Sequence record: NZ_CP014093.1
Direction: 5' to 3' (one strand)
DNA from: a plasmid
DNA length: 64,000 bases
Part shown: in pieces, positions 6,711-59,171 of the stretch
Layout of the letters: each line of letters opens with the position of its first letter
Numbering within the stretch: position 1 is the first letter of the stretch
Notes under the pieces: generated by a model
The model's database searches: none
What the model was told of the DNA's origin: nothing
The model's input: only the letters and a program-made list of their open reading frames with translations
Position numbers and translations under genes: made by a program

Positions 6711-6850
6711 CATACTCCCCTAGCTAATTCGCTAGGGGATTCTTAGTTCAACACGCTTTCACTAGATAGCCTCTTTTGAGGCTATCCCCGATCCAGTCGC
6801 TCCCTAAGCTAACCCCGCCAGTCCAGCGGTTTTTATATTCTTCGCTGCGT
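6711..6850 (-). ncRNA. putative omega/reRNA at the tnpB 3' end
   Basis: By family knowledge TnpB elements encode a guide RNA overlapping the tnpB 3' end and right end. Two stable hairpins are present here. Confidence 0.3.
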
Positions 6851-7898: not shown

Positions 7899-7966
7899 GT
7901 CTTACAAACGCTTTTGACTTAACTCATTGAGTTAGCCCCGCAATAAACGGGGCTTTCTCTCCCGAT

Positions 7967-8236
7967 TTAACTTGTCTGGAAGTCCATTTTTTCTAGGGCG
8001 CACTCAAAACCCTTAACAAATAAGGTTTGGTAATCTTGGGTAGGGTTATCAGTAAGCGCTCCGCCACAAAGCAGCCAATCTTGAAAATGCTGTTCTGGCG
8101 AGTCGTTCCAATCGACAGGTTGTAAGGCGTTGTAGATCTGACAAAGAAGCTCTACAGGCGCGTTTAGATCTTGGGAGAGGTAGTCTTGCGCAGCTTGAAG
8201 TGCGGCGCACATGTTGATTGTAGAAGTACCAATCAT
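7967..8236 (-). CDS. hypothetical protein
   Basis: ORF ending at the IS left end. Confidence 0.3.
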   Translation of the reverse strand: MIGTSTINMCAALQAAQDYLSQDLNAPVELLCQIYNALQPVDWNDSPEQHFQDWLLCGGALTDNPTQDYQTLFVKGFECALEKMDFQTS

Positions 8237-8705
8237 GATTTTTGTCCTAGTAAGTTGATGTTTAACTCACCAAAACCGAGGTCAATCAGTGGTGGTGAGC
8301 TGATTCGAGATTGACCTTACCGCCTACTAGGAAACGGCGCACCGAAGTGCTCCCAAACCAGCCCACCATAATTAGGATGTGCAGATTTTACGCAATAAAA
8401 AACCAGCAGGATGCTGGCGACTTGCGCCTAGTAAGTTTCGAGAGGTCAATCTCGACACTGGATTTTGCCAGTGCCCAAATAGATTAACTCCGAAAAAATA
8501 GGTTTTGCAAGTCGTTTTTTTTAAATATAATTTTTTATATGCAATCTGGCAAGCATTAAAAACGTTGGTTTTAATGTTGCGTTCGGAATAGAATCAATAA
8601 ACTCTTTCCTCATAATTCCCCTAATCACCACAATAGAATTAACTACAAAGGGCAGCGTTCCTCCCCTCCCTCTTTCGGGAGGGGTATCCACGCTGAAACA
8701 TTTAG

Positions 8706-19292: not shown

Positions 19293-19333
19293 AAAGTTTT
19301 CGCATGCGAAAACTTATCGCATGCGAAAATTTG
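19291..19333. repeat. 1.5 copies of the 22-bp palindrome
   Basis: Read directly. Confidence 0.9.
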
Positions 19334-22300: not shown

Positions 22301-25300
22301 GGGTATTGCTCGACAATCTCTTGGTTTTCGTCTTTGTCTGGATTACTGATTGCGTCAGCGCGCTGGCGTAGTTCCTCATATAGCGCTTCCTGTTCGCTAT
22401 TCATTTGGACAACGCTTTGCTGGCTAATCAGGTCAGGAATGTGAACGTTGGCACCAACGGATTTAGCATCCTCGATCGTCATGTAGCGGTTAACGATGTT
22501 TCGAAGTGCGTCTAGGTTTTGGAATCCGAGTAGGGCTTCACGCTGTTCAACTTCGCCCGAAATCTTAGTAACCAGCGCTTCGCCAGTCTTACCAAACATG
22601 CGGATAAAGTCGTCGCTGTCAAAAATCCCCATCTTGGCAAACGTGTCTGCCGGAATGATGTGGGACAGCATATTGAACATATCAACAGGGCTGTTTACGG
22701 TTGGCGTAGCTGTTAGGAAGTAAACGCCTCGACCGTCATTGCGAGCCTTAATGACGTTGTTCTTAAGCTGCATATCGATAGCGCGATCGGCTTGCGCTTG
22801 GCTAGGCAAGAATGCCAGATTGTTTCGGTATGAGCCGCCCTTGTACGAGTTACGGAAATCATGCGCCTCATCGACCATAACCGAATCGAATAGCAAGTCC
22901 TCAAAGTACGGTAGTTCTTCGTTTTTGGCCGTACCATCGTCAGCATATTTCGCTTCAAAGCGCGCGTTCTTCGCTTGCTCTGTGTGGCTTTCCGCTTCCT
23001 TAACTAGCTTGCTTGAACCAGCAATCAAACCAGCATCGCGCATTTCAAGCACGTTGGCCGAAATCGTGTCCGGCTTCAATGGAATGCGGTTGTACACGTC
23101 TTTTGTCATTACCACGATGCGAGCGGTTGACTGTGTAAGCTGGTGGAGCTGTTCTGCTACGCGCTTGCCGTTTGTGTCTACGGTCAGTTTGGCGCGCAAG
23201 ATAGGATCGCCTTTCTTGTCTAACTTCGGTTCGCCCGTTTCATCTAATACCGGTTCCCGAATGATTTTTCCTTCATCGTCTTTGTGAACTTCAAGGCCGA
23301 TAAATACCTTGTCAGATAGATTGCTTTCACCAAAGAACAGGTCGGACTCATAGAACCAGTTCTCTAACACGGATTTAGGAACAACGATGGCCACACGGTT
23401 AGCGCGTTTGGTTTCTAGGTTGTGCTGCACGAGGCCAAGGCCAGTGAGCGTTTTACCCAAGCCAGTACCAAAGGCAATAATGCCGTTACCGTCTGCACTG
23501 TGACGGCGAATCGTTGAGTTTTGGTAAGGTAGGAACTCAATCGCACCAGATACGCCATTTAGCGTTAGTGGTGAGTCATCAAACTCCGGCTTAATCCAAC
23601 CGTTAAACGTATTGTTGTAAACCTGTTCCAAGTATTCTGAATGGTCAGATGATGCAATCCATGTAGAAAACTCATCATCGAGGCGGCGCATTTGTTCACG
23701 GATAAGTGATTTATCTTCGTTCTTACTACCGCCACGAACCGCACCATAGTTGATGTACGATTCAATTTGACGCTCAAATCGCTCATCGCTGTTCGCTGCT
23801 TTACCTTTCACGCCATTACGAGTTAGGCCATCAATCCATTCGCCATCACGCCAACGGTAGCCAGTAAGGTATTGGCCGGATTCGCTTTGTACGAAATCCT
23901 CAAAGCCGTCCTTATCCTCGGTAAAGTCGCCCAAGATAAATTCCGTGTAGCCACGGTCATGCAGGAACTCAAGCATGATGTTTTTAGGAATCCACTTATC
24001 GGTAAGCTTCATCTTCACATCGGCAATCGAGATCTTGTTTCGCTTAGATTCGATGGCTTGAATTTGGCGCATGATGTTAGCTTTCACGGTATCGCTGGTG
24101 GTCGATACTAATTGTGCGGTCAGCTGATCCATGCGCTTACCGACTAGGCCAGTCGTCGCTTTATGGAATGCCGTCACCGTGCCGTCAGGGTTTACGGCTA
24201 CCTCATCCATGTTCGCTAGATAATCAAGCAACTGCTCATCGCTCATCGCATCGATACCGCTTGCGGTGTAATACTTGCGAACGTCATCCAGTGTCAGTGT
24301 GGTTATGCCTAGTTCACGGTCGCATAGATGGAACACGTCACCAATGCGAGACGAACTGTATTGAACGGTCAGCTCACGCTTAAGGTCGCCTTTGAGTAGG
24401 TCAGATAGTTTGCCCTTAGAATCGATCGATGAGTGGTAGTAATTCCATGCAGAGACGTACTTCTCGCTTAAGTTGCTTAGCGCTTTCTTCGATACCTTAG
24501 AACCGCCCATTAATGTGTTCAGCTCTAACACTTCGCCGCTTAACTTCACGCGATATTGTTCGGTCTGGAAGTCCTCCGCGCCCATTGCCATGTTTATCAA
24601 GTCGCTATTGGATGTAGTTCGGCTACCAGCAACCAGCGTTGCAAGTGTTTGAACTTTCATGCCAAGTAGAATGCCTTTGTAAGCGTGTTCTTGGCTCGCT
24701 TTTGGCAGCTTGGCAATCTCGCGCATTAGGGCTTTAAAGTCGTCATGACACAAGTAACCGTAATCTTCGAAAAGCTTGAGCGCTTGGCTGGCCGATAGCT
24801 TAAGCATCGATTCAGTAGAGTAGGTGATAGAACCGATCTCATCGGTGTTATCTACGCCATAGGTCGCCTTACTGATAACGCCTGTTTTCGCATTGCTTTC
24901 AGATAGCTCCCATTCGCCATCAATCATTTCGTACTGCTGGCCATTGCGGAAAATCGTGTCTCCATCGGAGTATTTCGCGCTCACTGGCTCACTAACCGCT
25001 TCATCGAGTAACATCCAGTCAATGCGACTGTCAAAGCGGCGCATTAGCGACTCTTTAATATCATCGTTAGAACGGTTGCCACGCTTCACGACTTTGCGCG
25101 CAAACTTACCTACGCCCTCAACAGTCTGTTCGCCGTTGATGAATTTCTTACCCTCGCGCTCGAACCACTTACCTTTGAGCCAAGTGTCCCAAAGTACGTT
25201 AGATTCAATCAGCGTGTCGCGGTCGGCGCTATCAATCAGTGCTTTCGCTTGGTCGCTGTGTTTGCGCCAGATAACAAGGTCAGTCACTACGCCCGTATCA

Positions 25301-26055
25301 GAGAACGTGCCCGTTGGTAGTCGGTGCGCGCCCAAAAACTCCGCTTTAAGCGCGAGTTGTGTACGCCACTTCTCAAGGTTTTTCGCATCACAAATACGAG
25401 TTGGCAGCACTAGGGCAATCAAGCCACCAGCTTTCGCTTTATCGATAGAACGAGAAACGAAATACTGATCAGCGTACTTAATGTCTTTGTACGCTTTGTC
25501 TTTCATCGCGCTAGCGTCTCGAACACCATAAGGCGGGTTGCCGATCACTAGGTCAAAGTCGCCAATGCCAGGATTAGTTGCTACCGCTTCGAATGCAGAT
25601 TGGATTACATGGTCTTCGGGGTGAAGAATTTGGTTAATGGCCGCCGAGGTCTGATCCATTTCTACGGATGTAGTCAGGGTGCCTTTAGGTTTGGTTTCGC
25701 TAAATACTCCCACACCCGAACTTGGTTCAAGTACGCTACCGCCAGTAAAACCATAGGAACGAACTGCATCCCAAGTCGCGCTCGCCAGCCATTTAGGCGT
25801 GTAGTATTCGTTGGTAGAGCCACCGATACCGCCAAAACCTGTGTAGTCGCGCAGAGCTGCCTTATCTTCGGGTGAAACGTTGGAGTAGTCGCCGTTGTAC
25901 TTGGCGAGAATATCTTTGGCTAGTTGGTTAGCCTTAAGGCGCTGGTGGCCTTTTGGAGTGTCGCTAATATCGACAGCGAGCAAGGCTTCAAACTGGCGTA
26001 CCAGTTCATCGATTGTTGTCGCCTGTTCAATACTGCGGGTTAAATCAGTGTTCAT
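19336..26055 (-). CDS. giant methyltransferase-helicase fusion (2239 aa), DarB-like anti-restriction candidate
   Basis: N-terminal AdoMet motif 'VLEPSSGVGVF' and 'LVIGNPPYG' (N6-adenine methyltransferase motif IV). Central 'IIAFGTGLGKTLTG' Walker A and 'MVDEAHDFRN' DEAH box (SNF2/DEAD helicase). Confidence 0.8.
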   Translation of the reverse strand: MNTDLTRSIEQATTIDELVRQFEALLAVDISDTPKGHQRLKANQLAKDILAKYNGDYSNVSPEDKAALRDYTGFGGIGGSTNEYYTPKWLASATWDAVRSYGFTGGSVLEPSSGVGVFSETKPKGTLTTSVEMDQTSAAINQILHPEDHVIQSAFEAVATNPGIGDFDLVIGNPPYGVRDASAMKDKAYKDIKYADQYFVSRSIDKAKAGGLIALVLPTRICDAKNLEKWRTQLALKAEFLGAHRLPTGTFSDTGVVTDLVIWRKHSDQAKALIDSADRDTLIESNVLWDTWLKGKWFEREGKKFINGEQTVEGVGKFARKVVKRGNRSNDDIKESLMRRFDSRIDWMLLDEAVSEPVSAKYSDGDTIFRNGQQYEMIDGEWELSESNAKTGVISKATYGVDNTDEIGSITYSTESMLKLSASQALKLFEDYGYLCHDDFKALMREIAKLPKASQEHAYKGILLGMKVQTLATLVAGSRTTSNSDLINMAMGAEDFQTEQYRVKLSGEVLELNTLMGGSKVSKKALSNLSEKYVSAWNYYHSSIDSKGKLSDLLKGDLKRELTVQYSSSRIGDVFHLCDRELGITTLTLDDVRKYYTASGIDAMSDEQLLDYLANMDEVAVNPDGTVTAFHKATTGLVGKRMDQLTAQLVSTTSDTVKANIMRQIQAIESKRNKISIADVKMKLTDKWIPKNIMLEFLHDRGYTEFILGDFTEDKDGFEDFVQSESGQYLTGYRWRDGEWIDGLTRNGVKGKAANSDERFERQIESYINYGAVRGGSKNEDKSLIREQMRRLDDEFSTWIASSDHSEYLEQVYNNTFNGWIKPEFDDSPLTLNGVSGAIEFLPYQNSTIRRHSADGNGIIAFGTGLGKTLTGLGLVQHNLETKRANRVAIVVPKSVLENWFYESDLFFGESNLSDKVFIGLEVHKDDEGKIIREPVLDETGEPKLDKKGDPILRAKLTVDTNGKRVAEQLHQLTQSTARIVVMTKDVYNRIPLKPDTISANVLEMRDAGLIAGSSKLVKEAESHTEQAKNARFEAKYADDGTAKNEELPYFEDLLFDSVMVDEAHDFRNSYKGGSYRNNLAFLPSQAQADRAIDMQLKNNVIKARNDGRGVYFLTATPTVNSPVDMFNMLSHIIPADTFAKMGIFDSDDFIRMFGKTGEALVTKISGEVEQREALLGFQNLDALRNIVNRYMTIEDAKSVGANVHIPDLISQQSVVQMNSEQEALYEELRQRADAISNPDKDENQEIVEQYPNDTVFGLIRKMDKVSTDLDLYYERVTYRFAKDSKKEVEAAVSKLPNTVTVAFEDVAPDGTVKLSKIQVKVDKSVKVEGDHCVVQLHQQLDDRFTNICDKAKLKFTHPVSPKYAKFLENAREIYLAGGKQLVFTEEKTQHKKVARIIADFVGCKLSEIGILNSDTVAGKKGSKATEDDEEAGLEAMANAYNTSKYKFMILNKKGEVGINLHHGTTDIHHLTLPWTPMSITQRNGRGARVGSKQNSVNVHYYTSKGSFDDFRLATIQRKATWIETMFKGDEKYIANADADAADETAIMLAANPEEAKARIEAAKRQAERKRKLEERRLASINVSKYIKATQMLALDVSAVEGELAELREKLEPLRKEVEEDRLRAEGEKRGSWQHKNYQRTKGRLFALESQIKTYEAAIKNRDKASDTIKKLKPAMELAINDGVLKDYPDFLTHPELYIVRNGVIVRNGYTYKAEVKSRSWSAEYDSKATIMITNFDRKSGTVDGFITEMDGEPASRNYVDLPVERIIEIAPVNQDRAALEAKALQGVPLSEVAHTFDRETFFELVAEKKMKAYGNSRRCLVRNADGSFSTPWGLDVEPDQTLIYPDASDKATAKALLDQVTKQLEDKGRVMLEHDILSFFIGSDWDKQAMENGNQVSEQEVVELVTLEIKAFEEKYPELYQEALLKAETIYKTSITFLKELDNHLSNLKWTGYTNAHEARRLSAREYTRYTDILTERSSEYRTELEDKLFADFTKLVANDPDRAKRLSQIACWMTQYKPTTDTHLLKKVDAIYGENSQETMLKVCADLHAIGEREFLSGDGLIFSDDWSLNRMKGAYGSLFTYRSAQREEFIEKYLNADKPEKAEVKVTETQKVKIDNISAINVESIEKFSELMSGIGIDVKMVTSPISWKPKRGRNRKEIVVEPYERIGLMDNNGLKGSLKVMFAGDKEAKAEYGADFASNASSEFNGGWWFISAKADLELLAKSLLTIHNTMAEAA

Positions 26056-31081: not shown

Positions 31082-32158
31082 ATGAGTGATGAAGAATATT
31101 TCTACCCTGCGGTAAGCGATAACCTCCCGAAACATATCAAAAAAGGCCATCAACTGGTCTTTAGTCGTCAAGATCTATCCGCTAGGGAAGCTGATATGTT
31201 TGCGTTGATGATTGCACATATGAAACCAAGTGATTGGGAGAAGAAAACACCACACTATGAATTTACTTCACATCAATTATCAGAGTGGTTAGGTGTTGAG
31301 TCTAAACATATCGGTAGCAACTTAAGTCCAGTAGCGAACCGCCTAGCTAGTCGAAAAATCGGGATAAAGGTGGAAACCCCGAAAGGTGATATTGAATTCG
31401 ACTATAGACCTCTTTTTAAACATATCGCTTATAAACACGGCATACTTACGATGGTTCCTAACGATATGCTCAAACCTGAGTATATTGAATATAATCAAGG
31501 ATTTGCTCTGATTAATACTCGCAATTTCTTTGAGGTGAAAAAGGAGTATTCTAAGCGCTTGTACGAACTGCTTAGTCGCTTCAAAGACAAGGGCTTTGAA
31601 ATGCATGCGCAAAAGCTTAGTGAACTGAAAGGAATATTTGGGCTTTTGGACGAATCAGGGAAGCTGAAGAAAGATAAAAGTTCCTTCAAAAACAACAGCG
31701 TATTTATGAAACGTTGTATCAGGGAAAGTATTAAAGAACTTTCTGAACACCCTCAGATTAGCAAAGAGCTTTTATTTTTAGAAAGTAGCCAAGGTGATAA
31801 GGGGTTTGAGGTTGTAAAGAAAGGTAGAACCATTACTGGAATCAAGTTTCTCTTCCGGTGGGTTAAACTAGGTTCAATTGATGAGTTAAATCAACACGAT
31901 GCTCTTAAGACAATTAGACAACTTGAATTGAAAAGGCTTCAAAACCAAGTCAGACTCACCGAGTCTGAACTAGAATCACTTGCCATCGCGTACCGCTATG
32001 TGGGTAAAGAAGACCACGCTCTTAAAGTTGAAGATAGCTTGTCAAAACGATACTCAGAAAAAGAGCAACAAAAGCATGATGATGGAATACATGAACTAGA
32101 GTCGTTAATGGAAAAGATAGATACCCTTTCAGAACTAACCGATACTCACGATTACTGA
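31082..32158 (+). CDS. replication initiator (Rep) of an iteron-type replicon
   Basis: 358-aa ORF flanked on both sides by direct repeats with the ACCTAAAATATGT core. The role is assigned from context; no sequence family was recognised. Confidence 0.5.
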   Translation: MSDEEYFYPAVSDNLPKHIKKGHQLVFSRQDLSAREADMFALMIAHMKPSDWEKKTPHYEFTSHQLSEWLGVESKHIGSNLSPVANRLASRKIGIKVETPKGDIEFDYRPLFKHIAYKHGILTMVPNDMLKPEYIEYNQGFALINTRNFFEVKKEYSKRLYELLSRFKDKGFEMHAQKLSELKGIFGLLDESGKLKKDKSSFKNNSVFMKRCIRESIKELSEHPQISKELLFLESSQGDKGFEVVKKGRTITGIKFLFRWVKLGSIDELNQHDALKTIRQLELKRLQNQVRLTESELESLAIAYRYVGKEDHALKVEDSLSKRYSEKEQQKHDDGIHELESLMEKIDTLSELTDTHDY

Positions 32159-32167
32159 TAGCTAACA

Positions 32168-32470
32168 AGTTTTAGGTCATGGGCGCTATAGATGACATTT
32201 TTTAGGTTGAAATGAGCTATGTGACACATTTTAGGTATATAAGCGAGAATCCGGCGTGATCATTGACTCGAAAGTAAAAAAAACCGGGCAAGACTTCTAT
32301 GCAAGCATCTCACACACCTAAAATATGTCACTCAAGAACATAAACACCTAAAATATGTTATCCAACCACCTGATATATGATCACTTTCACCTAGATTATG
32401 TCGCATTAAAGCCTGTAAGAAGATCACAAACACCTAATAAATGATCAATTAAACCTAGATCTTGTTACTT
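32168..32470. repeat. iteron array, about 8 copies of the ACCTAAAATATGT core (3 in one orientation, 5 in the other)
   Basis: Copies at 32168, 32194, 32223, 32313, 32343, 32386, 32431 and 32451. Confidence 0.7.
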
Positions 32471-32587
32471 AAAGACCTAAAAAAAGATCTTTAAACGAAT
32501 CAAACTTCTTTAATATCAATGACCTATGAGAACTATAGATCTTATAGATCTATAGTTCTCATAGATTAATATAGTTAAATATAGATC
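32379..32587. promoter_or_regulatory. GATC (Dam-site) cluster, 8 sites in about 210 bp, including the 15-bp inverted repeat GAGAACTATAGATCT-tat-AGATCTATAGTTCTC
   Basis: GATC at 32379, 32422, 32443, 32458, 32486, 32538, 32547 and 32584. Confidence 0.7.
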
Positions 32588-32598
32588 TTTATAGCGTA

Positions 32599-32607
32599 TG
32601 TGGATAA
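32599..32607. promoter_or_regulatory. perfect DnaA box (TGTGGATAA = TTATCCACA)
   Basis: Exact consensus 9-mer next to the GATC cluster. Confidence 0.6.
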
Positions 32608-33122
32608 CTGGAAAATCAAAGATTTACACAGTTTCCCACATACACAACAAGTTTTTGTTGTTTAGATGAGTGAATGATCCTGGCTATAGACAACTGCGTG
32701 TTATAACTAATAGTGGTAGGTCAATTTTCAATCTAACTGATAGATGGACGATGAAAGGTAAATTTGGCAGGCAGAACCGAATTGCGATCGTATTTGTGTG
32801 AGTTCTTGACAAAAACACGAATTGACAGGAAATATTAATTACTGGATAGTTGTAAGTGTGCTCTAGAAGCAACAATGTACTTCTAGAGCGACAACGTTGT
32901 CTAGCCGAATAGTGCTTGCACTATGGCTGTGACTAACTTGATTAAAGCAATCAAGAGATCAACTAACTTGACCATATCTACCTCTCCAAAGGCTTATGGT
33001 TAAAGACAACGCACAAGGGTTTTTTAATGGCGGCCACCATTGATTGCCCGTATGCACGAAGTGAAGCTTTCTAGCTGCTTCGAGCTTGGTTGGTGATTAC
33101 ATAATTACCTCCAAATTAATTA

Positions 33123-34980: not shown

Positions 34981-35469
34981 ATGGCTTCAAGAGGCATTAA
35001 CAAGGTCATTCTGGTTGGTAACTTGGGGTCAGATCCCGAAATCCGATACCTGCCAAATGCGGCGCAGTAGCGAATATCACGATCGCTACATCCGAAACTT
35101 GGCGCGATAAAGCGACAGGGAGAACCGAGAAAAAACCGAGTGGCATCGAGTGGTGTTGTTCGGCAAGTTGGCCGAAGTAGCGGGGAGTTCCTACGCAAAG
35201 GGTCACAAGTTTACATCGAGGGTCAATTGCAGACTCGCAAATGGAAAGACAAGCAAGGCCAAGACCGTTACAGCACAGAGGTAGTAGTTCAAGGCTTTAA
35301 TGGCGTGATGCAAATGCTTGGCAATAACCGAGCTGGTGGCCAGCAACAACAAGGCGGTTGGGATCAATCTCAACAGCAATACGGCGAGCCACCAATGGAT
35401 TTTGACGATGAAATACCGTTCCAGAACGAGTTTCGTCATTACAAGATGCTGAGTTACGTGGCGGCTTGA
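34981..35469 (+). pseudogene. ssb: single-stranded DNA-binding protein gene with three 1-nt frameshifts
   Basis: '[28 protein letters not shown]' then stop. Frame +1 gives '[20 protein letters not shown]', a further shift gives '[16 protein letters not shown]', and the original frame resumes at '[20 protein letters not shown]...[11 protein letters not shown]'. Confidence 0.8.
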
Positions 35470-38684: not shown

Positions 38685-38919
38685 TAGCAAGGCAATTGGG
38701 CTACGTGTCTTTATCGGCTCCGTTCGGCTACTGGCTATAACTATTGTGTTAGCGCTGGTGGCTGTTGTCGGTATTGGCACATACAGCTTTTATGGATTGG
38801 TGGTCTATCCAAAGATAGAGCGAGTGAAGATTGATTTGGACGCAGAGCGCATCGAGCGCATTACGGTAGCGGCCAAGAGTGGGGAGAAGTCAGAGAATGG
38901 CGCACCTAGTCAAAAGTAA
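38677..38919 (+). CDS. small hydrophobic hypothetical protein
   Basis: Internal Met of ORF 38620..38919, followed by a transmembrane-like segment. Confidence 0.25.
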   Translation: MNDSKAIGLRVFIGSVRLLAITIVLALVAVVGIGTYSFYGLVVYPKIERVKIDLDAERIERITVAAKSGEKSENGAPSQK

Positions 38920-39535
38920 GACCGTCGAGGGCGCAAAGAATAAATGGGCGACTCGTTGGGACTGCTTCTTTGATGCTCAATTCCTCTTTCGACGTGATAC
39001 CGGAAAAGAGTTTGTTTTAGACGTGGCCGCCGAGCCACAAACCGCCAAGGTGAACCGCTTCTATGTGGCTCCTGACTGGATTAACGAACAGCCGAGCGGA
39101 TTCCCAAGCCTTAAGCCAAAACACAAGGCCGCTCAGCTCCTAAACCCTGTTTGTGTTGGGTTCGATGGCCTACAAGGCGAATGGGAAGATGGCTGGTGGT
39201 GCAATCCTCCGTTCGACCTTAAGTTTGAGTTTCTGGAAAAGGCGCTAGAACAAGCCAGGAAAGGTCGTGACGGCATGATGCTGTTACCACATGAAGAACT
39301 CACAACGTGGTGGCTGGACTTGGTTGAGGGCTACGCCACGATGATTTACAAGCCGGATGGTCGTTACCCGTTCTATGAGACAGATGGACACACCAAAAAG
39401 CAAGGTGTGAACTTCGGCAGTGCATTAGTGCTCTTTACCGAGAAAGGTCTACAAACACCATCCATGCGCTTTAACCGTAAGGTAGGCAGAACGCACCTTA
39501 CTGATATCTATGAGCAAATCGCTAAAGTGGCTTAA
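38879..39535 (+). CDS. phage Dam-family N6-adenine DNA methyltransferase
   Basis: 'GWWCNPPFDLKFEFLEKA' (NPPF motif of small phage N6-adenine methyltransferases). Confidence 0.6.
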   Translation: MGRSQRMAHLVKSKTVEGAKNKWATRWDCFFDAQFLFRRDTGKEFVLDVAAEPQTAKVNRFYVAPDWINEQPSGFPSLKPKHKAAQLLNPVCVGFDGLQGEWEDGWWCNPPFDLKFEFLEKALEQARKGRDGMMLLPHEELTTWWLDLVEGYATMIYKPDGRYPFYETDGHTKKQGVNFGSALVLFTEKGLQTPSMRFNRKVGRTHLTDIYEQIAKVA

Positions 39536-42784: not shown

Positions 42785-43073
42785 GTAGCGCGTTGTCTTG
42801 GGTATGGGGGAAAGGTGGCTAGTGAGATAACGCAGCCAATTACTATATTGTGCCGCAGAATCAATTGTACATAAGTAGCGTTACTCACTAGCTGGCCATG
42901 ATTATATGCAGAAAATCGTTACTGTAAATACTATTTAATGTCGCGTTATTAAATTTTGTCTTTAAAGTCTCATTGACAATCAAATGGTTGTTTCATCTGG
43001 CTTCATCCTTGTTGTGATTGGCTCGATAAACTCTGTATTATTCCGAACGTAACGAAATAAGTGGGGTTTAACC

Positions 43074-44468
43074 GTGTCCGGCAAGATTGACTATCAGGCT
43101 CACCAACAGCAGTTTTGGGAGCAGTTAGAGAAGCAGCCGACTTTGACGCTGGCCGAGTATTGCGAAGCCAACGGACTAAAGTACGGCACCGCTAAGCGAT
43201 ATATAAAACGGCCAGCCAAAACGGGCGGCAAGTTCCAACCGTCCGTTATGCCAAAAATCAAAGCGAAAAAGACCAGTCAGGGCAATGACTGGCATTCCCT
43301 TTTGAAAGAATTTCTCGTGCGTGGCGCTCAAAACCCAACGCTCACGATGGCCGCTTTTGCGAAAGATAAAGGGGTGAACGGTGCGACATTGCGCCGCCAG
43401 TTTAATTCCATGCGATCGCTGCCCGAGTTTGATCGATTATTTGATCTTTACGATGAGCAATTAGCGAAATTTCAAGAAGCGAAAAACGACAAGAAGAAAA
43501 AAAGGGCTGATAAATCAAAGTCCAAAGAAGCGGGGGCAACTGCGCAAGCGCAAAGTGCGCAAGGCGATCGCGCGAAAACAGGAGGTATTGGATCACTGCG
43601 CAAGCCGCGATCAGTTGAGGGACTTTCGCAGTATTCCAGTGCTCAAGTGGGTCGCCCTGTTGTGCATGGTGGTTATGCCCGTAGTGCGGGTATTACTGGC
43701 GAAATCATGGATATTCTCATGGATACCGATCCGCTTTCGGTTTGCAACGAACTGATTATTGCCCGTTCGCAGTATTACCGAATGAATGAGACGTTAGCTA
43801 AACGCCTTAAAGAGATCGATGAAATGGAAGAAAGCGGAGACATTCCGCTCAATGACGAAAACCAGCCAGTAGACATAAACGCCATGCGTGACCGTCTCAT
43901 CTTTGGCTATGGCACCAGATTGCGTGAACTGGAATTGAGTATTTCCACGATGGCCAAACAAGAGGCCAAGCGCTACATCGATTTGCGTAAACAGGAATAC
44001 GCTGAATTGATGATGCCACACTTACTGCCAGCGGAAGAAACCAGCCTAGTAATAGAAATGCTTTCTCTGCGCACTAAGAACAACTGGACAGCCTTAGAGA
44101 CGTGTCAGCAAATCGAGAAGTTAGGTGCACGTCCACCAGCAACGCTATTGCATGAAGCTAAGGTAGAGCTAGCGAACCTAGAACCAGAAGTAGAAGACAC
44201 TGGTATCAGTGAGCAAGAGCTGGATGAGCTGTTTGATGACTACACGTTAGAGCAGATTGAGCAGCAAGATAACTGGCTACCTGCGCGCAAAGAAGAAGTA
44301 AACCGACGAATCAAAGAAGCCGAAGACCTAGAGAACGGCGTAGAACCTACCCTATCCCCATCCCAAATACAAAACGAAGCCGCTAAAGAGCAAGCCTATG
44401 ATGACCTCGATAACGAGGGAGTGTCGGGGTTTGACGATGTAGACAGCTTCGAGGTACTTGGTGGCTAG
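43074..44468 (+). CDS. terminase small-subunit-like protein (HTH N-terminus, acidic C-terminus)
   Basis: Lies directly upstream of, and in frame with, the large-subunit ORF. 'TLTLAEYCEANGLKYGTAKRYIK' HTH. Confidence 0.4.
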   Translation: MSGKIDYQAHQQQFWEQLEKQPTLTLAEYCEANGLKYGTAKRYIKRPAKTGGKFQPSVMPKIKAKKTSQGNDWHSLLKEFLVRGAQNPTLTMAAFAKDKGVNGATLRRQFNSMRSLPEFDRLFDLYDEQLAKFQEAKNDKKKKRADKSKSKEAGATAQAQSAQGDRAKTGGIGSLRKPRSVEGLSQYSSAQVGRPVVHGGYARSAGITGEIMDILMDTDPLSVCNELIIARSQYYRMNETLAKRLKEIDEMEESGDIPLNDENQPVDINAMRDRLIFGYGTRLRELELSISTMAKQEAKRYIDLRKQEYAELMMPHLLPAEETSLVIEMLSLRTKNNWTALETCQQIEKLGARPPATLLHEAKVELANLEPEVEDTGISEQELDELFDDYTLEQIEQQDNWLPARKEEVNRRIKEAEDLENGVEPTLSPSQIQNEAAKEQAYDDLDNEGVSGFDDVDSFEVLGG

Positions 44469-45854
44469 ACGAATAAAGAGCGTAACACAAGATCCCGTTA
44501 CCCTGCCCTAGTTAAGCGGTATCGCTATGACTGGAAACGCCTCGCTGTTGAGCTAGTCGGTAAGAAGCCGAGCTGGCAGCAGCGCAAAATCATTGATAGT
44601 GCTCAGCGTATTGGTGCGCGAACGACTGTCAGCTCTGGCCACGGTACAGGCAAGTCAGACATGACCAGTATCATGATCATTGCTTTCATGCTCTGTTTCC
44701 CCAATGCGCGTGTTGTGCTGGTGGCGAACAACGCGAGACAGGTACAAATCGGTGTATGGAAGTACCTAAAATCCAACTGGAACACGCTCTTACAAAAGCA
44801 TGGTTGGTTACAGCAATACTTCACCATTACCGAGACAGCCTTTTTTGAAAACTCAGCAAAAGGTATCTGGCAAACCAGTGCTAAATCGTGCCGTATTGGT
44901 AACGAGGAAGCGCTAGCGGGTGAACACGCTAAACACTTGTTTGTTATTGTCGATGAGGCGTCAGGCGTCTCTGACAAGGCTTTTGGTGTGTTAGCGGGTG
45001 CATTGACCGAGAAAGATAACCGAATGCTGTTATTGAGCCAGCCAACGCGCCCTAGCGGCTATTTCTACGATACGCATCACCGATTAGCCGAGCCTAGTGG
45101 TCGATGGCGAGCCATCCGGCTTAACTCCGAGGAATCGCCGTTCGTAACCGTGGAATTTATCCTCGATAAGCGATTGGAGTATGGCGGTCGAGAGGCACCG
45201 GAATACCTGATTAAAGTACGTGGGGAGTTCCCAAGTTCCATTGCTGGCATGCTGCTTAGTCGGGATGCACTGGACAAAAGCGCAAGGCTCAACCTCGATA
45301 TGCCCGATGGTTGGGGTTGGGCTGCGCTGGTGGACGTGGGTAATGGTCGTGACCGCTCGATACTCAATATCTGCAAGGTTTGGGGTCAACGCATGGAGCG
45401 CATCGTTAAGAGCGTGAAATTGCTTGAACAACCAAGCACGGTCGATCCGGTTCGGTTCGCTGACATTATCCATGCAGAGTGTAGTGAGGACTTGTACCCA
45501 AACATCACGATAGCAGTGGATAGTGACGGTGTAGGTTATGACACGGCGACTTGCTTAGAACGCTACGGACGGCGCGTACAGCGCATTCGTTGGGGTAAGA
45601 AGATGCACTCCACCAGCGATAAGCAGCGTTTCTTTAACCAGCGTGCGTATGCCAATGTTATGGCTCGGGATGCGATAAACCAAGGCCGCATGCAGATAGA
45701 TAAGAACGTCAAGACGGCAGAACAAGGCAGTAAAATACCTTGTGCAATCAACGAGTCAGGCCAATGGGTAATGATGCCAAAACCGATGATGAAAGAGAAA
45801 ATGAACATCCATCACCTGACCGTTGGGATACATACTGTTTTTCTCAATTGGTAG
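44469..45854 (+). CDS. terminase large subunit (ATPase-nuclease), no canonical start codon
   Basis: Walker A 'VSSGHGTGKS' lies upstream of the first ATG (44661). The frame is open from the codon after the TAG at 44466-44468. Confidence 0.7.
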   Translation, partial: TNKERNTRSRYPALVKRYRYDWKRLAVELVGKKPSWQQRKIIDSAQRIGARTTVSSGHGTGKSDMTSIMIIAFMLCFPNARVVLVANNARQVQIGVWKYLKSNWNTLLQKHGWLQQYFTITETAFFENSAKGIWQTSAKSCRIGNEEALAGEHAKHLFVIVDEASGVSDKAFGVLAGALTEKDNRMLLLSQPTRPSGYFYDTHHRLAEPSGRWRAIRLNSEESPFVTVEFILDKRLEYGGREAPEYLIKVRGEFPSSIAGMLLSRDALDKSARLNLDMPDGWGWAALVDVGNGRDRSILNICKVWGQRMERIVKSVKLLEQPSTVDPVRFADIIHAECSEDLYPNITIAVDSDGVGYDTATCLERYGRRVQRIRWGKKMHSTSDKQRFFNQRAYANVMARDAINQGRMQIDKNVKTAEQGSKIPCAINESGQWVMMPKPMMKEKMNIHHLTVGIHTVFLNW

Positions 45855-46063
45855 ATTATGTGCCGCACGAAATGGAAGTAACAGAGAGCATGCTAGAGTC
45901 TCGCAGTTCCGTAGAACAATGGGTACTGGAAGCGCTTGAATCGGACGATGCTTAATTCCGTTGGTGCCAACATATAAAAGTAATATGAAAAGGTGGCGAT
46001 ACCGTTAAATATCGCCACCAAATCACCAATCAAAGCGGAACAACAATAATATAGCTTAAAACC

Positions 46064-46969
46064 TTAGTTCACTAATCCATCGAACTGCGAACGTGCTTTG
46101 CTTTCGTTCTTGCTTCTAAGCTCTTTTCTGGCTTCACGAATAGCGTCAACTTCGCTTTCTATATACATATTAGCGTTAGGGTACAGTACCGACTTAAAAG
46201 CATTCGCTTCATCGAATATCGAACGTCCCTCAGTGGTATTGTTCGTGATTAGCACATCGTGATCTTTACAAGAGCGATGCCTAATTAGAACAAGGCCACC
46301 AGCGTTAACGTGAACCTTTTTAGCTACGCGAGAAATGCCACCATTGTTGCCATCATAGGTATGGATGATAGCTACAATGTCATTGTGTTCTTGACCGCGC
46401 TTTCTAAACTCAACGTCTGCATTGTCTTTGAAGTATTTCAATTCATTCAATGCAGTGTTTTTATTGTTAGTGAGCTGCTCTTTCTCATCTTCTGGAAGAT
46501 CGTAGGAGAGTTTACGGTCGAGGTCGCGTAGGTATGCTTCAAGTCTTTTGGCTAGACGTGCGCCAGTGACTTTCTGGCTGCTAGCTGCTTTATTAATTGT
46601 GATGTTAACGCGACGGACGTTCTCAATTACGGTCGTCTCTTTAAATGAGTTAGATGAGCTGTTGAAGTATTGAGGTGCGCGCTCTAAAAGCTCTTTATTG
46701 GCTGATTTCGCGGCCTCAATATACTCAAGTAAACGAGTGGTCGGATTACCACGTTTTACTACAGCTACGATGCGTTCATTGAATAGTCCACTATCTTCCT
46801 TGCCATCTATTTGTTCGGAAAAAGTCGCGCGGTGCTTCAAGGCACGTTTTAGGCGCGCATCTGCCGTTTGTTTGTTTGCAAGTAATTGATTAAGTGTTTC
46901 TATATCAATAGCTTTTAAATCTTTAATTTCAGTATTTTTTTTATTAATCATGGTGAACGGTTGCTCCAA
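46064..46969 (-). CDS. hypothetical protein (301 aa) in AT-rich island
   Basis: ORF; no motif recognised. Confidence 0.4.
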   Translation of the reverse strand: MEQPFTMINKKNTEIKDLKAIDIETLNQLLANKQTADARLKRALKHRATFSEQIDGKEDSGLFNERIVAVVKRGNPTTRLLEYIEAAKSANKELLERAPQYFNSSSNSFKETTVIENVRRVNITINKAASSQKVTGARLAKRLEAYLRDLDRKLSYDLPEDEKEQLTNNKNTALNELKYFKDNADVEFRKRGQEHNDIVAIIHTYDGNNGGISRVAKKVHVNAGGLVLIRHRSCKDHDVLITNNTTEGRSIFDEANAFKSVLYPNANMYIESEVDAIREARKELRSKNESKARSQFDGLVN

Positions 46970-47995: not shown

Positions 47996-48454
47996 ATGTT
48001 TAAAAAAAATGAATTGGTGTCGCTTTCGGATGAGTGGTCGAGCAAACGCAGTGCCATCCAAGAGCGCCACCACGACCTTATTTTTATCTCTTTGGATGAG
48101 CTAATTAATGAATGTGGAGGCCAAGAACAAGCCGCCGCCGTCATTCGCAATTTCTACGGCTTCCCTTGTGTGCAAGGCACGATCAGCAAGGCTCGAAAAG
48201 GTAATAATGCGCTAAAGATTCGCTCTCAACTTCGCTTTGCCATAAACACAATTAAAGAAGCTCAAAGCATCCAAGCACAAACCAAGATGATCAACCACTT
48301 TGGCCGCTTACCTGTTCACCACGACTTCGTGCGTGTCGATGGCGAACTAGGCTTATTCTTGGGATTTGGCTTGTTATCCCGAACCCTACAAATTCAAGTG
48401 TTCGTTGGTGGCGAGTTTAAAACGGTTAATGCTAATCACGTGGAGTTGATCTAA
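47996..48454 (+). CDS. hypothetical protein, possibly an integrase N-terminal domain
   Basis: Ends exactly where the integrase catalytic domain begins (ATG overlapping TAA). Confidence 0.3.
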   Translation: MFKKNELVSLSDEWSSKRSAIQERHHDLIFISLDELINECGGQEQAAAVIRNFYGFPCVQGTISKARKGNNALKIRSQLRFAINTIKEAQSIQAQTKMINHFGRLPVHHDFVRVDGELGLFLGFGLLSRTLQIQVFVGGEFKTVNANHVELI

Positions 48455-49082
48455 TGGCTGCTTTCCCTGCGCGTGACTTAGACGAGTTGGAAAAAATAAT
48501 CCGTTTAATGGATGACATTAACCCGCTTATCTCTATGATGATTGAAATGGAGGTTCGTACAGGTTTACGTTATTGCGACATTTCGAAGCTAAAATTCAGC
48601 GATGTGATGATAAATGGCGTGATCCGGTCGTCATTTAGCATTGTTCAATCAAAAGGTTTAAAGGCCGTATGACCCGAGGTAAGAGCGAAAAAGCCGCTAA
48701 AGAGGCCGCTCGAATCACCATTCACGTTAATGCCGAACTGGAAGAACTGATTAAACGTATCTACTTACACAATGGGCATAATGAGTTGATGTTTCAATCT
48801 AATCACCACTTGGCCAAAAAGGGCAATGCGATCAGCATCCAGTATATCAACCGAGCGTATAAGCGCATAGCAATGGAGTTGAGATTGCCATATCAGCTAT
48901 CAACACATTCGATGCGAAAAATGTACGCCATGCTCCTGCTTGAAAAGAAAGCCTCTTTGAAAGTGATTAAGGACGCGCTTGGTCACTCTAGTGTTGCCGT
49001 GACTGACCACTACTTAAGAACGTTCCACGACGAAGCGAAAGAGTACACAACAGGCATTTCATTAAAACCAAAGGCAGAATAG
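48454..49082 (+). pseudogene. tyrosine recombinase/integrase catalytic domain split over two frames
   Basis: 'EMEVRTGLRYCDISKLKFSDV' (Arg box). 'HSMRKMYAMLLLE...LGHSSVAVTDHYLRT' (H-x-x-R...Y catalytic motifs). Frameshift near 48660. Confidence 0.55.
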
Positions 49083-53165: not shown

Positions 53166-53654
53166 TTATTTAATGTTGATACCTAATCGAACTGATATGC
53201 CTAGAACGTTGGCCAGCCCGATAAGTGACGATAAAGAAGGGTTGTCGCGCGGGTGTAAGGTGTTATCCATACCTTTGGCCTTGGTAACGGTAGCTAAGGC
53301 TTCTGCAATGATCTCGGGCTCGCCAGTGCTTGCCGCTTCATCAATATAGGCTTGGATAGTCTGTTGGTTGGTTAAGTATTCGGATGGCTCTAACTCTTTT
53401 AATTGAGAGGTCACATGATCACTCTCTTTCACAATAAGACCACTCACCTGATTAACTTGCTGTATCGCGGTTTGAACGGCTTCGCCGTATGAGTCAGTTT
53501 CTCGGTCGAAATCGATACGAATATCGCTGCCAGATGCAGATACGGTGCAATCATTGGCACCAACCCCAACGAGCGCATTAGATAGCTCGCAAAGCGTGTC
53601 TGCGTTCATGTCGCCTTGGAACCTGGCCATCAGTGCAAAATCAAACTCTTTCAA
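53166..53654 (-). CDS. HTH antidote-like DNA-binding protein (HigA/addiction-module antidote-like C-terminus)
   Basis: 'HPRDNPSLSSLIGLANVLGISVRLGI'. Confidence 0.5.
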   Translation of the reverse strand: MKEFDFALMARFQGDMNADTLCELSNALVGVGANDCTVSASGSDIRIDFDRETDSYGEAVQTAIQQVNQVSGLIVKESDHVTSQLKELEPSEYLTNQQTIQAYIDEAASTGEPEIIAEALATVTKAKGMDNTLHPRDNPSLSSLIGLANVLGISVRLGINIK

Positions 53655-53727
53655 TCATCAATCCTCTCTTTAAGCAATTAGTGGCATTTTAGCCTTAACC
53701 ATAAGCCACCGTGCTGGTGGCTTATGG

Positions 53728-54462
53728 TTAGCTTCGTAACTCGTTTTCTCGATATTGCTCTATTGATTGCTCCAAATGCTCTGCGTTCTTGGGTGAGCTC
53801 ATCAAGTGATCAGTTTCCGATAGGATTTCTTCCCAATCCGGTTCTTCCAACGTTGGCCACAACATCAAATCATCGATGTCAACGTCCTTAAAACCAATCT
53901 TTGAGTAGTAGCCTTTAAGCGTCTCTACGCTTTCCTCGGAGCGATCTTCTAACGGGAACGCCTTTAGACCAATAATGTCGTAAATCGACGTGAATCGCGC
54001 AATAAAGTCCTCAATTAAGGCTTTAGAATACTTGTTGCCTCGATGCTCTTTCTTCACTTTCAGTTCGTGGATGACAATAAGGCGATCTGGTTCTGGACAG
54101 ACTCCCCAACGCATTTCTACGTTGCGTTCTTCAATGCTTGCTTTTAGCAAATAATTATCACCAAGGACTTGAACAAAGTGATAGATGCTACCGTCCACAT
54201 CCAGTAAATCGTGACAGTTTGTAATGTTTGATGCTCTGGCCAAGTCCACGATGTAGAAATCACAAGTAGCAACTTCGGTTTCAGCTCCACTCTCTTTATC
54301 AAGAGCAAACATGCTTGCCGTCATAACGTTGATACATGACTCAACATCATCTGAATAAGGCGCGGTACTTAAGGCGTAGTTAATGATCATTGTTCTGTTC
54401 CTTATCTGGTGCTGGTGGCTTAATGAGGGTCGATGGCAATTGAAGAGAACTGGCCACACCAT
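53728..54462 (-). CDS. GNAT-family acetyltransferase with acidic C-terminal tail (alternative start at 54390)
   Basis: 'VIHELKVKKEHRGNKYSKALIEDFIARF' (acetyl-CoA motif A). Confidence 0.55.
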   Translation of the reverse strand: MVWPVLFNCHRPSLSHQHQIRNRTMIINYALSTAPYSDDVESCINVMTASMFALDKESGAETEVATCDFYIVDLARASNITNCHDLLDVDGSIYHFVQVLGDNYLLKASIEERNVEMRWGVCPEPDRLIVIHELKVKKEHRGNKYSKALIEDFIARFTSIYDIIGLKAFPLEDRSEESVETLKGYYSKIGFKDVDIDDLMLWPTLEEPDWEEILSETDHLMSSPKNAEHLEQSIEQYRENELRS

Positions 54463-54468
54463 CCTTTG

Positions 54469-56244
54469 TCAAGACGAACCGGACACCCCTGACTTTAACT
54501 CCAAATTACCGCCAAGCCGCTCATGAATTGAGGATATTTTAGATGCGAGCTCAGTTAAAACTCCTAATTTAGCCCCGTAAGGTAATCTTTCTCTTTCATT
54601 CTCGATGCACTCACAAAGCAGGGCTAGAGCGTCAAGCTCTTCCGAAAGAAAATCCTCAATATTGCTAAAGTCATAACGTCGATACATGAAACTAGAAAAA
54701 TCATAAAGCTCCCCGCTTGACCAATTTGTTAACATCTGATCAAAATCTTTCTTCTGGAGGTGTTGTAGGAAAGGTTTGGAGCCGTACTTTTGTTCAGTAG
54801 CTTCGACACAGCTGTGCCAAGACTGCACTAACTGCTCTTTGTAGACTGCCATTTCACTCGCCTGCATACCAGTAGCTTTATCGCATAAAAATTCAGATAT
54901 TACGTTTAGCAAACGACTGTTTTGTACATAGTACCCTATATCTCTACCAAGCATATTCACATACGCTGCTGACTCAAATATGAATTTATCAAAAATTTTC
55001 TTGATATTAGAAACAAACTCGTCGAAATCATATTCTATATATCTGTGTTCTATCATAAAAGAATAGGCACTACAGGCTCTGCACCAATTGACAAAATCCG
55101 TTGGTTTTGGGTTGTCTATGTATTGCTTAAATCTTGACAACCGCTCTGACAACCACAAGTCGTCATGTCTACGAAACTGATAATCCAATATTTCTTGAAT
55201 GTCATCAGTTGCTACAGGCAACTTCATCTCGGTTTCTAAATCTTTAAACCTGTTATCATAGGCTGCTATATATCTTACGTGGCTATCGGTGGTGTGAGGC
55301 CTAAGAGGATGGATTAAACTTCTGAGCAACTCTATCCTTTTATCTTGTTCAGTTTCCCCCTTTGTTTTCCTATGGATGAGTGGATTTTCATGTAGGGCTT
55401 GCAAGACCTCGTCCAAGGAAAATTCATGATGGAAGATAGCGAAGCATGTCGCTAGTGATGTAATAAGATTGTGTTCATCGATTTGTCTGTAGTCCAATTC
55501 ATCCTTTCGAATAAATAGATTACTTATGGCATAAAAACGATCTACAGCGCGCCTAATTATGCGAATATTATCTACCTCATACTTGCGAAGCATGTCTTCA
55601 ATAATTTGCTTCGCCTCATTTGATAAGGTCTTTTCTTCAATATAGATTTGATCGATAACTGACATTAAATCGGTAGGAGTTCGACTTAAGTGCACTATGT
55701 CACTAAACACTTTTTCGATGTCTGCCTTCTTCTCTATCTTTCCCTGATTTCCAATGACAACGATTTTTATATTCTTATTTTCACATAGATTTAGGCATTC
55801 GCCCAATATCTCTGACTTTACATTCTCGTTAGAAAGGCGCTCTAGATCGTCAATGAATAATACTCGATCATTCAACTGATTAAAGTAATGTTGCTTTACA
55901 ATTGAACCAACATTACCAAGCGCTTTCCCTACTCCTCTAGTTCCCTCTAGTGTTTGCATGGCAAAATCGCCTACACCACTATAGCGCTTTGCGAACCACC
56001 CTGTTTGTTCATTACGACTGTACACAAGAGAAAGCAGCCGAGTTTTAAAATCATCCAGATCCGAAACACCGTATAAAGAGAGGTAATGCCCCTTATGTGT
56101 GGCTTTGTACTTATGCGTCAAATAGGGCATCAAGGTCTGCTTTACAAAATACGTTTTACCAACTCCCCAGTGCCCATCTAACAAAACTATGCTTGGAAAG
56201 CTAGATTCTTGGAGCAACTTATAAATACGTTCCTCAATTTTCAT
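54469..56244 (-). CDS. KAP-family P-loop NTPase
   Basis: 'IVLLDGHWGVGKTYFVKQ' (GxWGxGKT KAP Walker A). Start is the Met at 56244 with AAGG Shine-Dalgarno. Confidence 0.7.
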   Translation of the reverse strand: MKIEERIYKLLQESSFPSIVLLDGHWGVGKTYFVKQTLMPYLTHKYKATHKGHYLSLYGVSDLDDFKTRLLSLVYSRNEQTGWFAKRYSGVGDFAMQTLEGTRGVGKALGNVGSIVKQHYFNQLNDRVLFIDDLERLSNENVKSEILGECLNLCENKNIKIVVIGNQGKIEKKADIEKVFSDIVHLSRTPTDLMSVIDQIYIEEKTLSNEAKQIIEDMLRKYEVDNIRIIRRAVDRFYAISNLFIRKDELDYRQIDEHNLITSLATCFAIFHHEFSLDEVLQALHENPLIHRKTKGETEQDKRIELLRSLIHPLRPHTTDSHVRYIAAYDNRFKDLETEMKLPVATDDIQEILDYQFRRHDDLWLSERLSRFKQYIDNPKPTDFVNWCRACSAYSFMIEHRYIEYDFDEFVSNIKKIFDKFIFESAAYVNMLGRDIGYYVQNSRLLNVISEFLCDKATGMQASEMAVYKEQLVQSWHSCVEATEQKYGSKPFLQHLQKKDFDQMLTNWSSGELYDFSSFMYRRYDFSNIEDFLSEELDALALLCECIENERERLPYGAKLGVLTELASKISSIHERLGGNLELKSGVSGSS

Positions 56245-56323
56245 TATCAACCTTGTAAAATTAGAGCTATTCGTAGATCTAACCACAGATAGATAATTCT
56301 AGATATGCAGTTGATAACATTTA

Positions 56324-56674
56324 TCAACTAAATTTCATAATAGATAGAATCGAGCCACCAACATCGTGGGTTTCTTGCGTTTGGCCGCTATCCAAAATCA
56401 AAGAGTGAATAAGCACATCCCAATCAATGCCCTCTTTCTCGATCAAGTAAACCGTATCAGCTAGATAAGTTAAAAATTGATATTGGGAATCAATATCTGT
56501 GTAGCTTTCTTTGGCTTTGTAAGTAATCTCATCAAAATAAGCACAGAGTGAACCCCAAAACTTAACACTGCTACTTGCTGTCGCTTTCATCTCATAAATA
56601 TGATCAACACGTAGCTTGATGTCAGTGAAAAATCGCTTTATCTGGTGGGCGTATGTGCCTCTCTGCATTAGCAC
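56324..56674 (-). CDS. hypothetical protein, first gene of the KAP operon
   Basis: ORF 37 nt upstream of the KAP gene. Confidence 0.35.
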   Translation of the reverse strand: MLMQRGTYAHQIKRFFTDIKLRVDHIYEMKATASSSVKFWGSLCAYFDEITYKAKESYTDIDSQYQFLTYLADTVYLIEKEGIDWDVLIHSLILDSGQTQETHDVGGSILSIMKFS

Positions 56675-58496: not shown

Positions 58497-59171
58497 GTGT
58501 TTTTAATGGCTTTGACAATAGCAGAGAAACTTCAAAGACAACGAGAGAAGCAAAAACAATCAATGGAACGGGCGCGAGCAAAGCAAATCGCCAAAATGAA
58601 CGATCCCGAGGAACGGCAGAAACGCTTCAAAAAGCAATTACAGCAGCAAGAGCGTCAGCGCCAGCGACAAATCGAGCGCTTAAATGATCCCGAATACCAG
58701 AAAAAGCAGCGTGACAAACAGCAACAGCGCATCGAGCGCCAAAAAGCGAAGCCTGTAGCGAAGAAACCGACCAAAAAGATCGCCAGTAAGGGATTGAAAG
58801 GCCGAACGCCCACGGCAGAGGAAAGGCGCATCATGGATGCCATTGGCCGCTTACCATGTATTGCGTGTTGGCTGCATGGCCGAGAGAATCCGGTGATTTC
58901 CTTGCATCATGTGTTTGGTCGTGTTGGAGAACGGGCGCATGCGTATGTATTACCCTTGTGTTGTTATCACCACGACACGCTACTAGAAGCGGAGAAGCGC
59001 GCTCAGTATCCCGATATGATACCTATCCACGCAAAAGGGAAGTACGGCGGGAAAGCGCAATGGAAGATCCACAACGGTACAGAGATAGAGCTGTTGTTTA
59101 AGGTCTATAATCTGGCGGGATTGCCACTTGAATTGCTCGAAAACATTTACCCTCAACATTCCGAACATTAA
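58497..59171 (+). CDS. HNH-type endonuclease-like protein with Gln/Arg-rich N-terminus
   Basis: 'CIACWLHGR...SLHHVFGRVG...AHAYVLPLCCYHHD'. Confidence 0.45.
   Translation: MFLMALTIAEKLQRQREKQKQSMERARAKQIAKMNDPEERQKRFKKQLQQQERQRQRQIERLNDPEYQKKQRDKQQQRIERQKAKPVAKKPTKKIASKGLKGRTPTAEERRIMDAIGRLPCIACWLHGRENPVISLHHVFGRVGERAHAYVLPLCCYHHDTLLEAEKRAQYPDMIPIHAKGKYGGKAQWKIHNGTEIELLFKVYNLAGLPLELLENIYPQHSEH

Follow-up and report, generated by a model that had tools for sequence, protein, structure and literature searches.

In the bacteriophages P1 and D6 the two subunits of the terminase are encoded by separate genes, pacA for the small and pacB for the large subunit, which stand in this order and overlap by 1 nucleotide (nt) where the stop codon of the first meets the start codon of the second. 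The next gene, on the opposite strand, encodes a c1-type repressor, and in P1 a tyrosine recombinase gene is found further along. The same layout occurs in a stretch of 64,000 nt of plasmid DNA taken from sequence record NZ_CP014093.1 (the whole of this stretch is called the window here, and positions count from its first letter), which belongs to a P1-like Vibrio phage-plasmid. According to the original prediction, made from the letters of the window, its terminase small- and large-subunit open reading frames (ORFs) lie in one and the same frame, separated by a single TAG, and upstream of the Walker A motif the large subunit lacks a start codon. Comparison with related plasmids showed that the locus is an ordinary P1-type pacase operon on a phage-plasmid of the Vibrio alginolyticus type, and that pacB has lost one C at each of two places; both losses are very probably errors in the sequence.

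The operon differs from that of P1 in several respects. Its small subunit is a remote relative of P1 PacA and is longer (464 versus 397 amino acids), and in the family to which the window belongs the two genes overlap by 8 nt and pacB starts with GTG, whereas the P1 genes have the 1-nt overlap and an ATG. The host is a Vibrio, the replicon measures 90-140 kb, and pacB carries the two 1-nt deletions. Much closer are the V. alginolyticus phage-plasmids of 90-140 kb grouped in PLSDB rep_cluster_803, such as pMBL128 of ATCC 33787 and the S10 plasmid (NZ_CP135970.1). These are collinear with most of the window and their pacA and pacB genes are identical to those studied here save for the two missing Cs; the contractions of G/C runs that the window shows are not shared by them.

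That the two ORFs encode the small and the large terminase subunit, as was originally proposed, is borne out by profile and sequence searches. The upstream protein matches the PHROGs family phrog_370 'terminase small subunit' (E 1.8e-69, residues 3-405), and P1 PacA shows a weak direct similarity to it (E 4e-6). The downstream protein matches phrog_5902 and phrog_2, both 'terminase large subunit', with E values of 1e-113 and 3.9e-37. With tblastn against phage genomes it retrieved pacB of P1, P7 and D6 at 57% identity over 94-97% of the length (E ~1e-170 to 1e-180); the values are 57.0% over residues 2-485 for the complete D6 genome (E 3e-180) and 56.9% over residues 6-471 for P1 (E 2e-169). 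The identification of the genes rests on these PHROGs matches and on tblastn to P1 and D6, since Pfam and NCBIfam scans with both terminase proteins gave nothing above threshold and PacB had no match in a sequence search of the PDB. Megablast against the phage collection found no DNA-level match. The P-loop SGHGTGKSDMTS and the C-terminal motif SPD(R/H)WDTYCF are conserved with PacB of P1 and D6; of the Walker motifs, SGHGTGKS is identical in the P1 and D6 alignment and the Walker B-like LFVIVDEAS was read from the translation of the window. By homology, by its ATPase motifs and by the PacA-like gene adjacent to it on the upstream side, the downstream gene is a member of the P1-PacB-type large terminase subunits. 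Its reading frame is uninterrupted in every relative examined; in the window it is spread over three frames by the two 1-nt deletions, which is attributed to sequence error.

As a reading of the letters, the earlier description is correct. The ORF at 43074..44468 ends with the TAG at 44466-44468, which is the stop codon of pacA, and past it no further stop interrupts this frame between 44469 and 45852-45854; it encodes TNKERNTRSRYPALVKRY...GHGTGKS. A possible start (ATG, GTG or TTG) is first met in this frame with the ATG at 44661, 64 codons behind the TAG and downstream of the P-loop. Neither of the other frames had been considered open in this region, and by this a short stretch in the +1 frame, 44461..44511, was overlooked. 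It begins with a GTG at 44461-44463 and reads VARRIKSVTQDP VTLP up to its stop. The large subunit is therefore not without a start upstream of its Walker A: this GTG stands behind a GAGG Shine-Dalgarno sequence, overlaps pacA by 8 nt (GTGGCTAG) and is the start used by all relatives. A megablast search with positions 43000-46000 found nine Vibrio plasmids with 96.7-99.9% identity, and all nine have an annotated gene of 1497 nt which starts at the equivalent of the GTG at 44461, 8 nt before the stop of the upstream gene and in a different frame. The more distant plasmid THAF191c (77% nt identity) has a GTG start as well, with an overlap of 17 nt and the N-terminus VARKIKSITQDARY. In the +1 frame the N-terminus of the window's PacB is (M)ARRIKSVTQDPRYPALVKRYRYDW, and it aligns with the PacB proteins of P1 and D6 from residue 2, D6 PacB having MAGGRKIKCVTSDPRW; the peptide TNKERNTRS, encoded in the frame behind the TAG, does not align with either. 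The original prediction was to count as refuted if homologues revealed a conserved start that is mutated in this plasmid. In essence this has come true, since a conserved start, the GTG, does exist in the relatives; it has, however, not been damaged in the window, where the frame is disrupted only behind it.

The break is found 33 nt downstream of the GTG and 28 nt downstream of the TAG. At 44494-44496 the window has CCC, whereas all of the eight near-identical plasmids have CCCC. When IMG/VR was scanned for the exact pattern, CCCC turned up in five contigs; CCC was seen neither there nor in the GTDB representative genomes. Because of this missing C, pacB is shifted from codon 13 onward into the frame of pacA, which produces the apparent shared frame with a TAG and no start. 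Any single frameshift has a 1-in-3 chance of ending up in the frame of pacA, and no significance attaches to its having done so here. A second C is missing at 45809-45810, and it is this loss that creates the false stop at 45854, where the gene had been thought to end. The real end is at 45955: the last 49 codons of pacB are hidden by the second frameshift, in an ORF of 71 codons in the third frame (45740..45955) that includes SPDRWDTYCFSQLVDYVPHE. The second site was recovered in S10, SCSIO 43009, Isc15A, GS_MYPK1, pMBL128, 2014V-1011, L019 and L020. All of these have CCC, among them the six plasmids recovered by anchor search, and the multiple alignment of the eight near-identical plasmids showed the deletion to be private to the window. 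The Logan/NCBI contigs examined have the short version at neither site.

Between the nearest plasmid, S10, and positions 43000-46000 of the window there is a single substitution, and the only gaps are two of 1 nt each, located in C runs of pacB. Over 43058-46477 L019 (a short-read archive assembly) is free of substitutions, the two Cs being the sole difference. The PacA allele of the window is present in identical form on at least 24 public contigs, and the two contigs inspected both have an intact gene for 498 amino acids behind it. With one C added at both sites, the gene encodes a protein of 498 amino acids that is 100% identical to WP_017634087.1, the S10 protein; a look-up of the truncated product of 397 amino acids was negative. 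Judged by these sequence comparisons, the positions and nature of the lesions, the true start and the resulting gene model (pacA 43074..44468, pacB 44461..45955) may be taken as practically certain. The practical value of the analysis lies in this corrected model, with one C restored at each of 44494-44496 and 45809-45810 (Table 1).

Table 1. Features of the terminase locus, further genes of the element and one-base contractions in the window
Feature	Position	Strand	Remarks
pacA-like gene, terminase small subunit, intact	43074..44468	+	464 amino acids, GTG start; from the ORF list and PHROGs
GAGG Shine-Dalgarno sequence	44451..44454	+	6 nt upstream of the pacB start; identical in 8 of 8 near-identical plasmids
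True 5' end of pacB	44461..44496	+	GTG and first 12 codons (M/V-ARRIKSVTQDP); +1 frame relative to pacA
Frameshift site 1	44494..44496	+	CCC here, CCCC in every relative examined; pairwise and multiple comparisons, pattern scan
pacB body, read in the pacA frame	44496..45808	+	Walker A GHGTGKS, Walker B-like LFVIVDEAS, nuclease domain up to ...KEKMNI
Frameshift site 2	45809..45810	+	CC here, CCC in relatives; false stop 45852-45854
True 3' end of pacB, third frame	45811..45955	+	SPDRWDTYCFSQLVDYVPHE...DDA; TAA 45953-45955; ORF 45740..45955
C1-like repressor gene	46064..46969	-	PF27008, weak
Tyrosine recombinase gene, small	48454..49082
DarA-like gene	8706-13499		1597 amino acids
SNF2/Eco57I-methylase protein gene	19336-26055		2239 amino acids; in the style of P1 DarB
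Rep3-type replication gene	31082-32158
Ref family gene	58506-59171
ssb	34981-35469		private G-run deletions at ~35058, ~35117 and ~35181, within 127 nt
Private contractions, coding	~16196, ~16883, ~30507, ~36891, ~48656, ~49624, ~50183, ~63282		mostly G/C runs; parB (~16883), VRR-NUC (~36891), tyrosine recombinase (~48656), hlyD (~50183), DGC/PDE (~63282)
Private contractions, non-coding	~1067, ~29628, ~33849, ~42766

By analogy with P1, PacA and PacB would be made as two proteins from one late operon. The translation of pacB is probably coupled to the termination of pacA through the GTGGCTAG overlap and the GAGG site, and the two proteins together would recognise and cut the pac site and drive headful packaging.

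Losses of single bases are not confined to pacB. When the whole window was compared with the S10 plasmid for indels and homopolymer run lengths, about 12 conserved genes were found to have 1-nt frameshift deletions: parB, ssb (three times), VRR-NUC, the tyrosine recombinase gene, hlyD, a diguanylate cyclase/phosphodiesterase (DGC/PDE) gene, three hypothetical genes and pacB (twice). Five of these (parB, ssb, VRR-NUC and two hypothetical genes) were compared with 2-4 further independent contigs each, and all of the contigs have the longer run and an intact gene. The three deletions in ssb jointly restore the frame and scramble about 42 codons in between; the longer runs are present in all four other contigs examined. 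Among the runs of at least 4 bases in the reference, 13 of 111 G/C runs are shortened by one and none is lengthened, whereas of 632 A/T runs 6 are shortened by one and 4 are lengthened. Per run, losses are thus about 12 times commoner in G/C than in A/T. Even GG and CCC runs are affected, whereas no A/T run of 6 or 8 bases is shortened and of those of 7 bases only 2 of 18 are. Genes are not avoided, 13 of the 17 one-base deletions falling in coding sequence. In a core region of 6.7 kb for which nine sequences were aligned, the window has 4 private 1-nt deletions versus 14 private substitutions. The corresponding numbers are 0-1 versus 3-73 in six relatives and 5 versus 429 in the much more divergent 2439-01.

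It is this pattern, a private, deletion-only and G/C-run-specific lesion which recurs throughout the window in unrelated conserved genes, that makes a non-biological origin of the two missing bases in pacB very probable. They would be homopolymer under-calls of sequencing or assembly, of the type left by uncorrected long reads: the lesions lie in homopolymers, are private to this assembly and recur with a bias in both direction and base, without sparing coding sequence. A base-call error was among the explanations offered originally, and as a kind of explanation it holds; its placement at the TAG does not, the lesions being at 44494-44496 and 45809-45810. Systematic errors of PacBio RS II sequencing have been described as deletions of a single G or C, mostly in runs of 4-6 bases and in a minority of such runs, which survive high coverage and of which there may be several per gene, for example in a gyrase gene truncated at three points (PMC8574707). 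The losses in the window are similar in that most concern a single G or C in a minority of runs, with three in ssb; they differ in that some are found in runs of 2-3 bases.

Some points weigh against an artefact. It is deduced from comparative patterns and not from direct observation in reads. The lesions are also spread unevenly, with none in the 6.7-kb SNF2/DarB-like gene or in a gene of 4.8 kb, although published long-read errors likewise hit a minority of runs (PMC8574707). S10 was the sole reference compared at several of the sites that lie beyond 13-22 kb and 30-50 kb. Finally, a mismatch-repair-deficient lineage might in principle produce homopolymer frameshifts.

The best of the alternatives is that the missing Cs and the other one-base losses are real, pacB being a genuine pseudogene of a decaying phage-plasmid, for instance in a mutator host or once selection for the lytic cycle had been lost; the element would then be a plasmid no longer able to package DNA. 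Homopolymer frameshifts are a typical product of replication slippage, the lesions do stand in the given sequence, and their uneven spread is not obviously expected of a uniform error process. Defective P1-like elements are also known to exist (PMC7969092). We nevertheless consider genuine decay unlikely. With respect to S10 or L019 pacB has no substitutions and yet two frameshifts, so that the disabling lesions are not accompanied by any sign of relaxed constraint, and this ratio is very unlike natural divergence as seen in the six close relatives, where 3-73 private substitutions are accompanied by 0-1 private indels. Also disrupted would be parB and ssb, genes for the maintenance of the plasmid itself. 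Slippage should climb steeply with run length and give gains as well as losses, whereas GG and CCC runs are affected here and long A/T runs hardly at all, the G/C runs show losses only and no gains, and the excess of G/C over A/T is about 12-fold per run. It is improbable that a real wave of frameshifts in G/C runs, as might arise in a mutator, inactivated the pacase, parB, ssb and the recombinase of an element that persists as a plasmid, so that a phage-plasmid would be seen here on its way to becoming a plain plasmid.

Recoding at the TAG was also proposed, in the form of amber read-through or suppression giving a PacA-PacB fusion, or of a non-canonical initiation of PacB after the stop; programmed frameshifting to the same fusion may be added. 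The in-frame TAG of this one sequence, followed by 64 sense codons without a start, is its sole support, and the likeness to programmed read-through systems and fused terminases is superficial, being limited to an in-frame stop between two functional modules. In contrast to such systems, the arrangement is conserved in no relative, and the downstream gene has a conserved start in another frame. All relatives examined have pacB in the +1 frame, where a GTG and a Shine-Dalgarno sequence of its own serve it, the overlap with pacA being 8 nt in the close plasmids, and in P1 and D6 the genes are separate; with a canonical start at hand, a non-canonical initiation is unnecessary. At the protein level the nine codons behind the TAG (TNKERNTRS) show no conservation, while that of the +1 frame extends as far as P1 and D6. 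The second frameshift would still truncate a fusion before the conserved SPDRWDTYCF, and neither CCC nor CC is a slippery site. ARAGORN found no tRNA gene, and so no suppressor tRNA, in the 64-kb window, the scope of that search. Recoding is thus hardly credible, and programmed frameshifting was rejected together with read-through, fusion and non-canonical initiation. There is practically no chance that the two subunits were ancestrally encoded by one fused gene into which a recent nonsense mutation has brought the TAG, and nothing speaks for this beyond the shared frame in the window: P1, D6 and THAF191c have two separate genes each, and the TAG with its flanking sequence GGTGGCTAGACG is unchanged in all eight close relatives, where the annotated stop of pacA sits at the same place. 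Phase variation was rejected too, runs of 2-4 bases being too short and the arrangement not being conserved.

The original observation therefore holds as text, but the feature is not a biological one; the locus is ordinary and adds nothing new, and the biological importance of the finding is little. With respect to the sequence record, the window is best treated as carrying uncorrected deletions in G/C homopolymers. Other oddities in it, such as frameshifts, split genes or missing starts, should first be suspected of being assembly errors and be compared with relatives; this caution covers parB, ssb, VRR-NUC, the tyrosine recombinase gene, hlyD and the DGC/PDE gene.

The upstream gene, pacA, has a length of 1395 nt, and genes of equal length are annotated in seven of the eight close plasmids. 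The other one is the plasmid of V. alginolyticus Isc15A (NZ_CP099958.1, 9048-10441), in which a private loss of one base in an A7 run, at the equivalent of window position ~43497, has led to pacA being annotated as two coding sequences. This is a probable second example of a homopolymer error in this plasmid family. Inside the window's pacA, at 43411-43612, six GATC sites are clustered within about 200 nt, the second densest such group in the window; the sites are at 43414, 43431 and 43443 and, after a gap of about 120 nt, at 43566, 43591 and 43609. The cluster resembles the pac site of P1, which is likewise located within pacA and is controlled by Dam methylation, and a Dam methylase is encoded by the element itself (38897-39535). 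The analogy makes this cluster a candidate pac site, to be taken as a lead only.

Apart from the terminase locus, and in addition to the genes listed in Table 1, the window and its relatives also carry genes for Dam, HU, ParA/ParB, the Rep3 replication protein and a portal protein. The densest GATC cluster of the window (32371-32620, 8 sites in 250 nt) is non-coding, lies just downstream of the end of the Rep3 gene and is probably the plasmid origin. At ~19313-19329, between the SNF2/DarB-like gene and the next ORF, the window has an insertion of 17 nt relative to S10, which is a direct duplication (CATGCGAAAACTTATCG CATGCGAAAA). Two larger segments, 53516-56363 and 6710-8706, are absent from the S10 plasmid and probably represent variable cargo.

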